Assembly: GCF_009931435.1 (NCBI RefSeq)
Contig: NZ_CP043414.1
Length of the DNA: 64,000 nt
Direction: 5' to 3' (one strand)
Source: Escherichia coli
Lineage (GTDB): Bacteria > Pseudomonadota > Gammaproteobacteria > Enterobacterales > Enterobacteriaceae
In this document: positions 20,061 to 60,761 of the stretch, piece after piece
Layout: the number at the start of each line of letters is the position of its first letter
Position numbering within the stretch: position 1 is the stretch's first letter
Translations under genes and position numbers: made by a program
Notes under the pieces: model-generated
What the model was told of the DNA's origin: nothing
The model's database searches: none
What the model saw: the letters and a program-made list of their open reading frames with translations, nothing else

Positions 20061-20707
20061 AAATCACCCCGCTGCGTATTCAGATCGGCGGCGACTTCAA
20101 ACTGAGCTTCGGTTTTGGCACGCACGGTGGCTAAATCACACCCGTCGGCAATTTCGGTGAGCCACATTTTGCCGTCAATGAAACGAAAGACTGCCAGTTC
20201 AGTGACCAGCATATGCACCGCGTGTTGCGCAGTGAGCGGCATGGTGCAGCGGCGCAAAATTTTTGCTGAACCATCTTTGGCGCAATGTTCCATGGCGATG
20301 ATCACTTTGCGCGACCCGGTCACCAGATCCATCGCGCCACCCATACCGGGCACCATTTTTCCAGGCACTACCCAGTTCGCGAGGTTGGCTTCTTCGTCTA
20401 CCTGCAAACCACCGAGTACGCAGGCATCAATATGACCACCACGAATCAGCGCAAACGACATTGCGCTGTCGAACATCGCTGCGCCGGGTAAAATGCCGCA
20501 TGGTTGCCCGCCAGCGTTCACCAGATCTGGATGCGCTGTAGTGACTGGGCCTAAACCGAGGAAGCCATTTTCCGATTGCAGAGTGATATGAATATCCTCC
20601 GGTAAATAATTGGCGACCATTGTGGGTAAACCGATCCCTAAGTTAACGATGTCACCATCACGAAGCTCTTGCGCCACACGGCGCGCAATACGTTGTTTCG
20701 CATCCAT
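20057..20707 (-). CDS. atoA: Acetate CoA-transferase beta subunit
   Basis: 216-aa ORF; stop/start overlap with atoD and atoE. Confidence 0.95.
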   Translation of the reverse strand: MDAKQRIARRVAQELRDGDIVNLGIGLPTMVANYLPEDIHITLQSENGFLGLGPVTTAHPDLVNAGGQPCGILPGAAMFDSAMSFALIRGGHIDACVLGGLQVDEEANLANWVVPGKMVPGMGGAMDLVTGSRKVIIAMEHCAKDGSAKILRRCTMPLTAQHAVHMLVTELAVFRFIDGKMWLTEIADGCDLATVRAKTEAQFEVAADLNTQRGDL

Positions 20708-21369
20708 TATTTGCTCTCCTGTGAAACGATGATGTGGTCGATAACGGCACCAGGGGTGACAATATGGTCAGGTTGCAGTTCGCCGGTTTCGACCAGTTCA
20801 TCTGGCTCCACCAGCGTGATATCAGCCGCAAGGGCAATCAGGGGGTTAAAGTTGCGGGCGCTAAGTTGGTAGGTCAGGTTGCCAAGTGTGTCGCAACGAT
20901 GGGCGCGAATGAGCGCCAGGTCGGCGCGCAGTGGACGTTCAAGCAGCCAGGTTTTACCGTCGAGTGTCAGCGTCTGTTTGCCTTCCTCTACGACGGTGCC
21001 GACACCAGTTGGCGTGAGAAAACCACCAAGTCCAGCTCCACCACAGCGAATTTGCTCAATCAATGTACCTTGCGGTACGAGAACGACCTCCATTTCGCCA
21101 GAAATCATGCGCCGTCCGGTTTCCGGGTTGGTGCCGATATGTGAAGCAATTACTTTGCGGACTCGACCATTGACGATGAGCGGACCGATGCCGGTATCAA
21201 CAAACGCGGTATCATTGGCTATCAATGTCAGGTCGCGAACGCCAGATTCCAGTAATGCTTCCACCAGGCGGGATGGAGTGCCAATTCCCATAAATCCGCC
21301 CACCATGATGGTCATGCCGTCACGAAAGAAGCCGGAGGCGTCTTGTAATGTCATCAATTTTGTTTTCAT
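20707..21369 (-). CDS. atoD: Acetate CoA-transferase alpha subunit
   Basis: 220-aa [14 protein letters not shown]...; first gene of the operon downstream of a sigma54 promoter. Confidence 0.95.
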
Positions 21370-21512: not shown

Positions 21513-21553
21513 GCTATGCAGAAATTTGCGCACTGTGCAAATTTCTGCATAGC
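21513..21553. promoter_or_regulatory. AtoC enhancer site: 41-bp inverted repeat (17-bp arms) upstream of the sigma54 promoter
   Basis: gctatgcagaaatttgc-gcactgt-gcaaatttctgcatagc, perfect arms, about 100 bp upstream of the -24 element. Confidence 0.7.
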
Positions 21554-21564
21554 AAGTTTTGGCG

Positions 21565-22950
21565 TTATACATCCGCCGGATCGATACCGTATTCCTGGAG
21601 TTTATACATCAATGCACGGCGACTGATGCCCAGCATTAAAGCAGTGCGGGTTCGGTTTCCTTCTTGTTGTTCCAGCACTTCCATAATGATGCGTTTTTCG
21701 ACGCGTTTAATTTCCTCTTTTAAATTACGCTCACCGACAGGGGCTGTTTTTGCTTCACCAGCACTACAGACTGGCTGACGAATCTGCGGCGGAAGATCCT
21801 CAGAAAAAATGATCGGGCCTGAATTCATCACGACGGCGCGTTCAATAACGTTGGAAAGCTCTCGAATATTTCCCGGCCATGACCATGCGGTAAGCAGTGA
21901 CATTGCCATCGGATCGATGTCGATAATATCGCGCTGATTCTCACTACTGAATTTTTGCAAAAAGTGATTAGCTAACAGGGAAATATCTTCCCGGCGATCG
22001 CGCAGAGGCGGCAGTATTAAATGAATAACGTTAAGGCGATAAAAGAGATCTTCACGGAAGGTGCCTTCTTTCACCATTGCCTGCAAGTCGCGGTTGGTGG
22101 CAGCAATGATGCGGATATCAACTTTTATGGTCTGATGACCGCCAATCCGTTCAAATTCCCGTTCCTGCAGAATGCGTAGTAATTTGGCTTGCAGTACCAG
22201 CGGCATTTCACCAATTTCGTCAAGGAGCAGAGTACCTTCGTTGGCACGTTCAAATAATCCCTGACGCAGGGTTTGTGCACCAGTAAATGCGCCTTTTTCA
22301 TGACCAAACAGTTCACTTTCGAGCAACGATTCCGGCAGCGCCGCGCAGTTGACTTTAATAAACGGCCCCTTGGCCCGCCGCGAATTGTAGTGAATCGCTC
22401 TGGCAATCAACTCTTTCCCGGTGCCGCTTTCACCGCTAATCAAGACGCTGGCCTGAGAAAGGGCAATTTTGGCGGTGTCTTTGCAGATGTCCATCATTGC
22501 CGGGCTGTTAGTGAGAATGTGCCCCCATTGCCAACTGGTGCTTAGTGCCTGGTGCAGATGACGGATCTCTTTTTTCATTGACTGGAGTTGTAAAGCGCGC
22601 TGAACGATTAAATTCAACTCATCGAGATCAAACGGTTTGATGACATAGTCAAAGGCTCCGCAGCGTAGTGCTTCGACGGCGGTTTCCACTTCAGCATAGG
22701 CCGTCATCAGAATAACGGGTGTCCGTGTCTCATGGCTGCGCATCTCCTTGAGTGCCTTGATGCCGTCCATCTCTGGCATGCGGATATCCATCAACACCAC
22801 GTCAGGGTGAATATCGGCAAACAGGTGTAATGCTGTGCGCCCGTTGTTCGCACAATGTGTTTCGAATCCTTGTAGTGCAAAAGCGGTGCTCAGCATACGG
22901 CGAACATTATCTTCATCATCCACAATAAGGATGCGATTAATAGCAGTCAT
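21565..22950 (-). CDS. atoC: Sigma54-dependent response regulator AtoC
   Basis: 461-aa ORF; receiver domain (IVDDEDNVR..D..MPEMDG), AAA+ Walker A GESGTGKE, GAFTGA motif, C-terminal HTH. Confidence 0.95.
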   Translation of the reverse strand: MTAINRILIVDDEDNVRRMLSTAFALQGFETHCANNGRTALHLFADIHPDVVLMDIRMPEMDGIKALKEMRSHETRTPVILMTAYAEVETAVEALRCGAFDYVIKPFDLDELNLIVQRALQLQSMKKEIRHLHQALSTSWQWGHILTNSPAMMDICKDTAKIALSQASVLISGESGTGKELIARAIHYNSRRAKGPFIKVNCAALPESLLESELFGHEKGAFTGAQTLRQGLFERANEGTLLLDEIGEMPLVLQAKLLRILQEREFERIGGHQTIKVDIRIIAATNRDLQAMVKEGTFREDLFYRLNVIHLILPPLRDRREDISLLANHFLQKFSSENQRDIIDIDPMAMSLLTAWSWPGNIRELSNVIERAVVMNSGPIIFSEDLPPQIRQPVCSAGEAKTAPVGERNLKEEIKRVEKRIIMEVLEQQEGNRTRTALMLGISRRALMYKLQEYGIDPADV

Positions 22951-24939: not shown

Positions 24940-27777
24940 TTGAAATACCTTGCTTCTTTTCGTACAACCCTGAAAGCCTCGCGCTACATGTTCAGAGCAT
25001 TGGCGTTAGTGCTCTGGCTGTTGATTGCTTTTTCATCCGTTTTTTACATCGTTAATGCGTTGCATCAGCGAGAATCGGAAATTCGTCAGGAATTTAATCT
25101 GAGTTCCGATCAGGCTCAGCGCTTTATTCAACGCACCTCTGATGTGATGAAAGAGCTGAAGTACATAGCTGAAAATCGCTTATCGGCAGAAAACGGTGTG
25201 CTTTCGCCGCGTGGACGAGAAACGCAGGCAGATGTGCCAGTGTTTGAACCACTGTTTGCCGACTCCGATTGTTCCGCAATGAGTAACACCTGGCGAGGTT
25301 CTCTGGAGTCATTGGCGTGGTTTATGCGCTACTGGCGCGATAATTTCTCTGCGGCTTACGATCTCAACCGGGTATTTTTAATCGGCAGCGATAACCTTTG
25401 CATGGCCAATTTCGGTCTGCGTGATATGCCAGTGGAACGCGATACCGCGTTGAAAGCTTTGCATGAACGCATCAATAAATATCGAAATGCACCACAAGAT
25501 GATAGCGGCAGTAACCTCTACTGGATCAGCGAAGGTCCGCGCCCTGGCGTCGGGTATTTTTACGCCTTGACGCCAGTTTATCTGGCGAACCGGTTGCAGG
25601 CGCTTTTAGGTGTTGAGCAGACCATCAGGATGGAGAACTTCTTCTTACCTGGTACGTTGCCGATGGGGGTAACCATTCTTGATGAAAATGGTCATACCCT
25701 GATTTCGCTTACCGGACCGGAAAGCAAGATTAAGAGCGATCCTCGCTGGATGCAGGAACGTTCCTGGTTTGGCTATACGGAAGGGTTCCGGGAACTGGTG
25801 CTGAAGAAAAACCTGCCACCTTCATCGTTAAGCATCGTCTATTCGGTGCCGGTTGATAAGGTGCTGGAGCGCATTCGCATGTTGATCCTTAACGCGATTT
25901 TACTGAATGTGCTTGCCGGAGCCGCGTTGTTTACTCTCGCACGGATGTACGAGCGGCGTATATTCATTCCTGCGGAAAGCGACGCCCTGCGACTGGAAGA
26001 GCACGAGCAGTTTAATCGCAAGATTGTCGCTTCCGCGCCAGTGGGTATCTGCATTTTGCGTACCGCTGATGGCGTTAATATTTTAAGTAACGAACTTGCG
26101 CATACCTATCTCAATATGCTTACGCATGAGGATCGCCAACGACTGACGCAAATTATTTGTGGTCAGCAGGTCAATTTTGTTGATGTCCTGACCAGCAACA
26201 ATACCAATCTGCAAATCAGCTTCGTCCATTCGCGCTATCGTAATGAAAACGTGGCTATTTGTGTGCTGGTGGATGTTTCTTCGCGCGTGAAGATGGAAGA
26301 GTCGTTGCAGGAGATGGCACAAGCAGCGGAACAGGCGAGTCAGTCAAAATCGATGTTCCTTGCCACCGTAAGTCATGAGCTGCGAACGCCGTTGTATGGC
26401 ATTATCGGTAACCTGGATCTGTTGCAAACCAAAGAGCTGCCAAAAGGCGTCGATCGTCTGGTGACGGCAATGAACAACTCTTCCAGCCTGTTGTTGAAAA
26501 TTATCAGCGATATTCTCGATTTCTCGAAAATTGAATCAGAACAGTTGAAGATCGAACCGCGTGAGTTTTCACCGCGTGAAGTGATGAACCACATCACCGC
26601 CAACTATTTACCGCTGGTGGTACGCAAGCAGCTAGGCTTGTACTGCTTTATTGAACCGGATGTGCCAGTGGCCTTAAATGGCGACCCAATGCGTTTACAG
26701 CAGGTCATCTCCAACCTGTTGAGTAACGCCATAAAATTCACCGATACCGGCTGTATAGTTCTGCATGTTCGCGCTGATGGCGATTATCTCTCTATCCGTG
26801 TTCGCGATACCGGCGTGGGGATTCCGGCGAAAGAAGTGGTGCGCTTGTTTGATCCCTTCTTCCAGGTCGGAACGGGCGTACAGCGTAACTTCCAGGGGAC
26901 TGGTCTGGGTCTGGCGATTTGTGAAAAACTGATCAGCATGATGGACGGCGACATCTCGGTAGATTCAGAACCGGGAATGGGCAGCCAGTTTACCGTGCGT
27001 ATTCCGTTGTACGGCGCTCAGTACCCGCAGAAAAAAGGCGTGGAAGGGTTGAGTGGTAAACGCTGCTGGCTGGCGGTCCGCAATGCGTCGCTCTGTCAGT
27101 TCCTGGAAACCAGTTTGCAGCGCAGCGGCATCGTCGTTACAACATACGAAGGGCAGGAACCGACTCCCGAAGATGTGTTAATCACTGACGAGGTAGTGAG
27201 CAAAAAATGGCAGGGTAGAGCGGTAGTGACCTTCTGTCGTCGCCATATTGGTATTCCGCTGGAGAAAGCGCCAGGGGAGTGGGTACACAGTGTGGCTGCA
27301 CCGCATGAGCTACCGGCATTGTTGGCGCGTATTTATTTGATCGAGATGGAGAGCGATGATCCTGCTAACGCTCTGCCGTCGACGGACAAAGCGGTCAGCG
27401 ATAACGACGATATGATGATTCTGGTCGTGGATGATCATCCGATTAACCGGCGTCTGCTTGCAGATCAGTTGGGATCGTTGGGTTATCAATGTAAAACTGC
27501 GAATGATGGCGTCGATGCGCTTAATGTACTTAGCAAGAATCATATCGATATCGTGCTTAGCGACGTCAACATGCCAAATATGGATGGTTACCGCTTGACG
27601 CAACGCATTCGTCAGTTGGGGCTGACGTTGCCGGTAATCGGAGTAACTGCTAATGCGCTGGCTGAAGAGAAGCAGCGGTGTCTGGAGTCCGGTATGGACA
27701 GTTGCCTGTCGAAGCCGGTAACGCTGGATGTTATAAAACAGACACTGACGGTATATGCCGAGAGGGTCCGGAAATCG

Positions 27778-27789
<12 letters not shown>
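24940..27789 (+). CDS. rcsC: Hybrid sensor kinase RcsC
   Basis: 949-aa ORF MKYLASFRTTLK...; H-box HELRTPL, C-terminal receiver domain; the ORF begins with a TTG codon. Confidence 0.93.
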
Positions 27790-27981
<192 letters not shown>

Positions 27982-31638: not shown

Positions 31639-31731
31639 AAAAAAAACCGGATGCGAGGCATCCGGTTGAAATAGGGGTAAACAGACATTCAGAAATGAAT
31701 GACGGTAATAAATAAAGTTAATGATGATAGC
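31639..31731 (-). ncRNA. micF: micF antisense sRNA, divergent from ompC
   Basis: Minus strand reads gctatcatcattaactttatttattaccgtcattcatttctgaatgtc..., ending in the hairpin ccggatgcctcgcatccgg plus a T8 run. Confidence 0.85.
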
Positions 31732-31884
31732 GGGAGATATTCTAGTTGCGAGTGAAGGTTTTGTTTTGACATTCAGTGCTGTCAAATACTTAAGAATAAG
31801 TTATTGATTTTAACCTTGAATTATTATTGCTTGATGTTAGGTGCTTATTTCGCCATTCCGCAATAATCTTAAAAAGTTCCCTTG

Positions 31885-38048: not shown

Positions 38049-39707
<1,659 letters not shown>

Positions 39708-39714
39708 TGATGTG

Positions 39715-39952
39715 CCACATCCGGCATGTTATGCCGGATGTGGCGTATGCTGATAAGACGCGCCAGCGTCGCATCAGTCAACCGGCTTGGGCGTTAGATG
39801 TCGGATGCGGCGTGACCGCCTTATCCGACCTACGGGGTGGAGCACTTCACAGCGGTGTAGGCCTGATAAGACGCGCCAGCGTCGCATCAGTCAACCGGCT
39901 TGGGCGTTAGATGTCGGATGCGGCGTGACCGCCTTATCCGACCTACGGGGTG
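39715..39952. repeat. REP/BIME cluster between mqo and eco: 29-bp perfect hairpin then two tandem ~90-bp copies (113-bp period)
   Basis: ccacatccggcat-gtt-atgccggatgtgg; then tgataagacgcgccagcgtcgcatcagtcaaccggcttgggcgttagatgtcggatgcggcgtgaccgccttatccgacctacggggtg at 39751 and again at 39864. Confidence 0.85.
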
Positions 39953-39969
39953 CCACACTTCACGGCAGT

Positions 39970-40458
39970 TTAGCGGACTACCGCGTTGTCAATTTTCTCT
40001 TCCGCCTTCCAGATGCGGTATTTCACATCTACATTGTCTGGCGTATACACCACGATCGGCAGCTTGCTGTTGTAACGCAGCATTCCAGCATCGCCCAGAT
40101 ACGCGGTGACAAATTTCTTCTCTTTCTTGCCATCCGGGCAGGCCATCATCGTGGAAACCGGCGAGCTAACTTTATCAAAGACGTAATAATCATAGCCCCA
40201 GCCTTCCAGCGTTTTGCTTTCCAGCTTCCCGCCGAGACGATGCAAATTGCAATCGACTTCCAGCGTCTGACCGATTAACAGTTCTACTTTCAGGGTAGAT
40301 TCATCTTCTTGCGGGGTTAACTGAATCACCTGGCGCTTCATGCCTTTTTCAGCTTGTGGATAAGGCGCGATTTTTTCCAGTGGCTGGACGCTCTCTGCCG
40401 CCCAGGCGGAAGTGGTGGCGAAAGCGGCAAACAATACTGCAGGTAGAATGGTCTTCAT
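39970..40458 (-). CDS. eco: Ecotin, periplasmic serine protease inhibitor
   Basis: Start [20 protein letters not shown] (162 aa) inside the 169-aa ORF. Confidence 0.93.
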
Positions 40459-53064: not shown

Positions 53065-53163
53065 GCCAGATGCGGCGTAAACGCCTTATTCAGCCTACAA
53101 AATCGTGCGAACTCAATACATTGCTCGATCCGCGTAGGCCTGATAAGCGTAGCGCATCAGGCA
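53065..53163. repeat. REP pair (BIME) downstream of ccmH
   Basis: gccagatgcggcgtaaacgccttattcagcctac and inverted gtaggcctgataagcgtagcgcatcaggc. Confidence 0.8.
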
Positions 53164-56880: not shown

Positions 56881-56957
56881 TGGTCGGCACGAGAGGATTT
56901 GAACCTCCGACCCCCGACACCCCATGACGGTGCGCTACCAGGCTGCGCTACGTGCCG
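56881..56957 (-). tRNA. proL: tRNA-Pro (anticodon GGG)
   Basis: Minus strand reads CGGCACGTAGCGCAGCCTGGTAGCGCACCGTCATGGGGTGTCGGGGGTCGGAGGTTCAAATCCTCTCGTGCCGACCA: 7-bp acceptor stem, T-loop TTCAAAT, anticodon loop with GGG, encoded CCA. Confidence 0.92.

Positions 56958-60368: not shown

Positions 60369-60761
<393 letters not shown>

Follow-up and report, generated by a model that had tools for sequence, protein, structure and literature searches.

The region between mqo and eco was analysed within a window of 64,000 nt, the whole stretch of Escherichia coli DNA under study (contig NZ_CP043414.1). The two genes converge on a spacer of 262 bp, which holds a perfect hairpin followed by two tandem units of 113 bp at 39750–39862 and 39863–39975 (Table 1). 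These units are identical at 105 of 113 positions, including all of the first 90 nt. TRF returned a period of 113 over 39750–39963 (1.9 copies, 97% matches, score 407), and a repeat search paired 39750–39860 with 39863–39973. The first-pass annotation had described two near-identical units of about 90 bp with a 113-bp period, and these results bear it out. It had bounded the feature at 39715–39952; hairpin and repeat do lie there, but the array continues for about 20 bp, as far as the eco stop codon (39970–39972).

Table 1. Features of the mqo-eco region and their coordinates in the window
Feature	Coordinates	Strand	Remarks
mqo (malate:quinone oxidoreductase) CDS	38061..39707	+	ORF list; NCBIfam NF003603, 1261.7 bits; final codons run into the degenerate tail half of a Y REP in reverse orientation
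REP-derived hairpin	39710..39748	.	perfect 14-bp arms; 18-bp stem as mqo-sense RNA
Z2 REP, unit 1	39744..39777	-	33/37 to Z2 consensus; degenerate tail GTATGC instead of GTAGGCC
Head-to-head linker, unit 1, 21 nt	39778..39798	.	
Y REP, unit 1	39799..39833	+	31/35 to Y consensus; compensated stem variant GTCGGAT...ATCCGAC; exact repeat of 39910-39946
Tail-to-tail linker between units, 23 nt	39834..39856	.	
Z2 REP, unit 2, intact	39857..39890	-	34/34 aligned positions; holds IS621 target ATCAGGCCTAC (39857-39867, - strand)
Head-to-head linker, unit 2, 21 nt	39891..39911	.	
Y REP, unit 2	39912..39946	+	31/35 to Y consensus
Terminal linker-like flank, 23 nt	39947..39969	.	homologous to the linker between the units; extends to the eco stop codon
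Rfam naRNA4 (RF02564) match, unit 1	39748..39830	- (eco-sense)	60.2 bits; gathering score 59.5
Rfam naRNA4 (RF02564) match, unit 2	39860..39943	- (eco-sense)	67.1 bits; gathering score 59.5
eco (ecotin) CDS, convergent with mqo	39970..40458	-	NCBIfam NF002987, 262.3 bits; RefSeq annotation of orthologous loci

Anatomy of the tandem units

Each unit was resolved into a Z2 REP of 34 nt, a head-to-head linker of 21 nt, a Y REP of 35 nt, and a tail-to-tail linker of 23 nt, which together make up the 113 bp. The Y and Z2 consensus sequences used were those printed in Durrant et al. 2024 (PMC11208160), and the agreement listed in Table 1 upholds the REP identity that had been claimed from the letters alone. 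Two of the four differences in each Y REP constitute a compensated stem change. The Z1 consensus fit worse (26/30 with three gaps).

As defined by Ton-Hoang et al. 2012 (PMC3333891), BIME-2 elements combine z2 and y REPs in inverse orientation, are arranged in tandem, are conserved within a locus, and vary in number between strains, while their linkers vary in length and sequence. Both units described here contain a z2-type and a y-type REP, and the orientation alternates, with Z2 on the minus strand and Y on the plus strand in each. The REP feet read CTAC at 39830–39833 and 39943–39946, GTAG at 39857–39860, and a degenerate GTAT in the first Z2. The array is extragenic, bounded by the stop codons of mqo (39707) and eco (39970), and the mqo 3′ end is entered only by a degenerate outer REP half. 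Its conserved tandem copies number from 1 to 7 in different strains. A short S head-to-head linker with s/l/r flanking motifs is a further BIME-2 trait; at 21 nt the head-to-head linker here is longer than those of REP325 (11 nt) and rcsC-rcsB (10 nt), and the array may be an "atypical BIME" in this respect. The K-12 orthologue was itself classed as BIME-2 by Sutormin et al. 2019 (PMC6379681).

Both strands were predicted to fold into individual REP hairpins (z = −4.2 and −5.3). Covariation within the REP stems was assessed on 26 distinct units drawn from 14 loci (the window and 13 retrieved loci, with locus L005 left out of the unit alignment). Stem positions were paired in 94.6% of cases, yet at this shallow depth the signal was not above shuffled controls (79/500). 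Structure conservation in the REP stems is therefore statistically inseparable from plain sequence conservation.

The naRNA4 matches listed in Table 1 cover the full model (1–77) with about 6–7 inserted bases and exceed its threshold. Because RF02564 models one Z2-linker-Y unit of REP325, these matches identify BIME-2 units and fall short of establishing a dedicated gene for an HU-binding RNA. Elsewhere in the window, Rfam matches above threshold included the MicF sRNA (31639–31732), a tRNA (56884–56957), and the L25 ribosomal-protein leader (60675–60700), all on the minus strand.

The hairpin at the 3′ end of mqo

The hairpin has perfect arms of 14 bp (39714–39727 and 39731–39744) around a GTT loop (39728–39730). 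An inverted repeat with 13-bp arms had been pointed out after the mqo stop; that string, ccacatccggcat-gtt-atgccggatgtgg, is present at 39715–39743, inside a hairpin whose arms are in fact 14 bp long. In mqo-sense RNA the stem grows to 18 bp (39710–39748) via two G-U pairs, while in eco-sense RNA or DNA only the inner 14 bp are paired. The mqo stop codon (39705–39707) lies 2 nt from the 18-bp stem and 6 nt from the perfect stem. The window contains perfect hairpins with arms of 12 bp or more at 5 places, compared with approximately none in 30 shuffles. Elsewhere in the window, a palindrome with perfect 17-bp arms (GCTATGCAGAAATTTGCGCA-CTG-TGCGCAAATTTCTGCATAGC, 21513–21553) lies between the minus-strand ORFs 20707..21369 and 21565..22950; we take it to resemble the AtoC binding site upstream of atoDAEB.

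Both arms of the mqo hairpin can be traced to REPs. Its right arm matches a Y REP over the head half (15 of 16 bases), and its left arm together with the last mqo codons aligns with a reverse-oriented Y REP bearing a 7-nt insertion; in each case, none of 500 shuffles scored as well. Read from these alignments, the hairpin is the head-to-head junction of two REP halves and, being REP-derived, belongs to the same element as the array, REP161, with no standing as a separate feature. The first-pass annotation correctly reported both hairpin and repeat, but its division of them into two features does not hold.

At the end of mqo (…ADIAL and stop, with the left arm at 39690–39727), the stop codon occupies the REP-loop position of the reverse Y REP. 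In the rcsC-rcsB BIME of the same window, the first Y REP is degenerate and extends over the stop codon of rcsC (gene end, 27789). The C-terminus of mqo may be REP-derived, to judge from its alignment, and that of rcsC seemingly likewise. Liang, Rudd and Deutscher reportedly found in 2015 that REPs near stop codons cause ribosome stalling and trans-translation.

No U-tract was found beside the hairpin on either strand, and scanning 39500–40200 returned 0 terminator-like or promoter-like consensus sites. Compared with a Rho-independent terminator, the hairpin supplies the GC-rich stem-loop and lacks the T-run on both strands.

In 5414 of the 5426 complete E. coli genomes, the hairpin is present as a single copy. 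It is a conserved locus-specific structure rather than a dispersed repeat. Its outer four pairs (39710–39713 with 39745–39748) differ among strains, as seen at loci L001, L005, L006, and L009. Variants included A-U (K-12), G-U (most strains), and G-C (L006), as well as a change from C-G to U-G; pairing was always retained in mqo-sense RNA and broken on the opposite strand. This pattern, with few events behind it, hints at selection acting at the RNA level. A scan for the exact hairpin with a loop of 3–5 nt gave 0 matches in contigs of species representatives, which probably carry arm or loop variants.

Copy number and an IS621 insertion across strains

To compare the locus between strains, 5426 complete E. 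coli genomes were searched using the mqo and eco flanks only, and the locus was found in 5421. Spacer lengths among the 60 genomes listed corresponded to one copy of the unit in about 40, two copies in 1, three in 2, four in 2, five in 2, six in 11, and seven in 1. One further assembly was garbled and one carried an insertion. One copy was thus the commonest state among these genomes (about two thirds). Sequences of 14 E. coli loci, representing every copy number from 1 to 7, differed by whole units, in agreement with the published behaviour of BIME-2 elements; the first-pass annotation had proposed such a cross-strain comparison as a check. The K-12 MG1655 eco-mqo spacer measures 714 bp and contains the same hairpin with six copies of the 113-bp unit (5.9 to 6).

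Locus L005 (NZ_CP062883.1, strain Res13-Lact-PEA06-10) had truncated, indel-ridden units in a spacer of 775 bp, which is no whole number of units; this garbled array is probably an assembly error in a long repeat. As a whole, the window reached a best identity of 98.7% over 7.7 kb, and of 99.6% over the mqo/eco flanks, against the 5426 complete genomes. Its source lineage (E. coli group) is poorly represented among them.

The nearest relatives, strains 2020CK-00188 (flanks 99.6% identical) and 2013C-4282, hold one unit. A lineage-specific T in CAGTCAACC is common to both units of the window, and the single unit of the relatives resembles a fusion of unit 1 with the tail of unit 2. Given that lineage-specific bases occur in both copies and that the closest relatives carry a single one, the second copy is, by these comparisons, recent. 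It would have arisen through unit-register recombination, replication slippage, or RAYT-mediated amplification. The shared base and the composite single unit of the relatives suggest that one recent event of unit-register recombination or slippage separates the one- and two-copy states.

Beyond E. coli, Escherichia sp. E1V33 has this locus with the hairpin and three units, and it was the only match when contigs of species representatives were scanned with the linker pattern. Contig scans with the exact hairpin or the linker pattern gave no trace of the element outside the genus Escherichia that would indicate its age. A search of the literature for MLVA typing schemes that use this VNTR returned nothing naming mqo.

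IS621 belongs to the IS110 family and encodes a bridge-RNA recombinase. Its natural target is an 11-bp sequence, ATCAGGCCTAC (or ATCGGGCCTAC), with a CT core and located inside a REP (PMC11208160). The window holds an exact, intact copy once in the eco-mqo element, within the Z2 REP of unit 2 (Table 1), and others at 4456–4466 and 53134–53144. In strain 2017-02-2CC (NZ_AP027764.1; L006, 3885–5165), the eco-mqo BIME is interrupted by an IS621 that sits precisely at the CT core of ATCAGGCCTAC, within the tail of the fourth Z2 REP. The junctions of the insertion read GTGTAG/ATACTGT... and ...ATACAAG/GCCTGAT.

Proposed function, rival readings, and comparison with known systems

Taken together, these features make it very probable that the region is this strain's allele of the known E. 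coli REP161 element, consisting of a REP-derived hairpin and a two-unit BIME-2 array between the convergent genes mqo and eco. Published data on the K-12 orthologue indicate what such an element does. Table DS3 of Sutormin et al. 2019 (PMC6379681) lists it as 'BIMEs2 ... 654 bp eco>-<mqo' in K-12/W3110, with gyrase cleavage sites found under several treatments (11 with Cfx, 7 with Rif+Cfx, 2 with microcin B17, and 5 with oxolinic acid) and the remark 'Espeli, Boccard 1997: 6 cuts'. In the same study, y REPs were cleaved by gyrase far more than z2 REPs, and BIME-2 signals rose when transcription was blocked.

The preprint of Harris et al. 2026 (Table 16, row 365) places an overlap of eco and mqo transcript 3′ ends in log phase at MG1655 2305063–2305108 (46 nt), in REP161. 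The K-12 hairpin there has an 18-bp stem and a 3-nt loop (dG −33.4 kcal/mol). Transcripts of mqo stop just beyond it, while those of eco cross the array and stop on its far side. More broadly, REP325, which is built on the same plan, terminates transcription in a partly Rho-dependent manner and stabilises mRNA, and both genes are expressed at higher levels where REPs separate convergent genes. REP effects nevertheless vary widely, with no general effect on half-life.

If function carries over from the six-copy K-12 orthologue to the two-copy allele, as the analogy suggests, mqo transcripts would end at the hairpin, at least 2 nt after the stop codon. Transcripts of eco would pass through both BIME units, which would give them a 3′UTR of roughly 260 nt, before ending at this hairpin too; it would form their stable 3′ end. 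The REP stem-loops would serve as leaky terminators and as barriers to 3′-to-5′ exonucleases. The Y REPs would be preferred gyrase sites, absorbing positive supercoiling from convergent transcription. Since the hairpin has no U-tract, the mapped 3′ ends could instead be products of exonuclease trimming rather than true termination.

Extra units may be neutral, since about two thirds of the sampled E. coli have one. It is unlikely that unit number acts as a heritable, strain-specific dial, such that 1-, 2-, and 6-copy alleles differ in eco/mqo mRNA stability, read-through, or local supercoiling, together with selection on the outer hairpin pairs (a series A-U, G-U, G-C confined to the mqo-sense strand). 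Were there such a dial, each extra unit would bring two more REP hairpins to the eco 3′UTR and one preferred gyrase site. Selection on the outer pairs would imply that RNA structure ends mqo transcripts without a U-tract. The series from 1 to 7 copies, combined with the known gyrase and 3′-end data, offers a natural test bed for "REPs as 3′UTR dials", as a modest extension of existing work.

A rather unlikely reading, compatible with assignment to REP161, would see in the array selfish or selectively neutral repeat DNA. The copy-number range with its mode of one, the single copy in the closest relatives, and the lack of a covariation signal all agree with it, and TnpA-REP, a proposed BIME amplifier, cleaves and recombines BIMEs in vitro (PMC3333891). 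Pulling the other way are the element's presence between mqo and eco in 5414 of 5426 E. coli genomes as well as in a second Escherichia species, the strong gyrase site and mapped transcript end of the K-12 orthologue, and the raised expression associated with REPs between convergent genes. We consider it very improbable that the units are genes for naRNA4-type small RNAs which, by analogy with REP325, would bind HU, bridge DNA cruciforms, and condense the nucleoid. Qian et al. 2015 proposed this nucleoid role for REP325 RNAs, an eco-sense transcript crosses the array in K-12, and both units score above the RF02564 threshold on that strand. However, the model represents no more than a Z2-linker-Y unit of REP325, and the two units clear its threshold by a small margin. 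Harris et al. 2026, from the same laboratory lineage as Qian et al. 2015, reported no measurable nucleoid compaction by REP325/naRNA4, no stable ternary complex, and no REP-REP contacts in Hi-C.

Palindromic repeats at regular spacing might recall a small CRISPR array, for which there is next to no chance. Palindromes at this locus alternate in type and orientation, and the segments between them are themselves repeated; because the whole 113-bp unit recurs, linkers included, the array lacks unique spacers. Its neighbourhood consists of mqo, eco, yojI, and nap genes (napF), and the sequence refutes this candidate. In calling the region a BIME and not a CRISPR array, with no cas genes nearby, the first-pass annotation was right, as the Y and Z2 consensus matches, the mqo and eco flanks, and the BIME-2 class of the K-12 orthologue attest. 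It had likewise dismissed the ORFs on the repeat as spurious, and a protein encoded there is vanishingly improbable. Three overlapping ORFs of 67, 37, and 163 codons do cross it (39707..39910 on the plus strand, 39774..39887 on the minus strand, and 39787..40278 on the plus strand), but no RefSeq gene lies in the interval in the 15 E. coli records examined, and a Pfam scan of the three ORFs gave no matches. Because 113 is not divisible by 3 and strains differ in copy number, the frame changes from one strain to another and cannot be held, and this candidate too was rejected. For annotation, the ORFs over the repeat are best treated as spurious and the naRNA4 matches as "BIME-2 unit", with neither a dedicated sRNA gene nor a CRISPR flag.

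The REP161 allele can be compared with several named systems. The K-12 hairpin orthologue is included in a screen of bidirectional terminators between convergent genes that was re-tabulated by Harris et al. 2026. The hairpin lacks the A-tract and U-tract flanks of canonical bidirectional intrinsic terminators (the K-12 orthologue has 2 A and 2 U). REP325, the source of naRNA1-6 (yjdM-yjdN, K-12; RF02564), is also a tandem Z2 + Y array, and its linkers are partly alignable with those of the window (84/115 aligned positions overall). However, its period is 100 rather than 113 bp, its head-to-head linker is 11 rather than 21 nt, its tail-to-tail linker is shorter, and it lies between tandem genes of one operon instead of convergent genes.

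Within the window itself, REP162 (rcsC-rcsB, 27771–27981; 27771–27867 paired with 27884–27981) resembles the eco-mqo array in having a Z2-like + Y unit about 1.8 times between convergent genes, with an overlapped stop codon. The first-pass annotation had noted the common period of the two arrays. Spacing in REP162 is indeed 113/114 bp, but its linkers (10 and 31 nt) differ in length from, and are unrelated in sequence to, those of 21 and 23 nt at eco-mqo, so the shared period is a chance agreement in length between members of one repeat family. REP162 also has a Z2 variant, CCAGAT/ATCTGG, and a degenerate first Y REP. The strongest naRNA4 match in the window falls in this repeat (27902–27978; 84.3 bits on the plus strand and 62.9 on the minus strand).

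The closest counterpart is K-12 REP161 (NC_000913.3, 2304394–2305107), which has the same locus, 113-bp unit, and linkers, with units about 94% identical on average. It contains six units, compared with two in the window. Two stem positions and one loop base distinguish the hairpins, and the 18-bp stem, all Watson-Crick in K-12, has two G-U pairs in the window that are mismatches on the other strand. The window Y REPs differ from those of K-12 units 2 and 4 at 1 of 35 bases. At the head of both Z2 REPs, a lineage-specific change from GGC in K-12 to GTC in the window weakens the lowest stem pairs. The eco-mqo BIME-2 has already been described as REP161; what is specific to this strain amounts to its two-copy allele and a handful of base variants.
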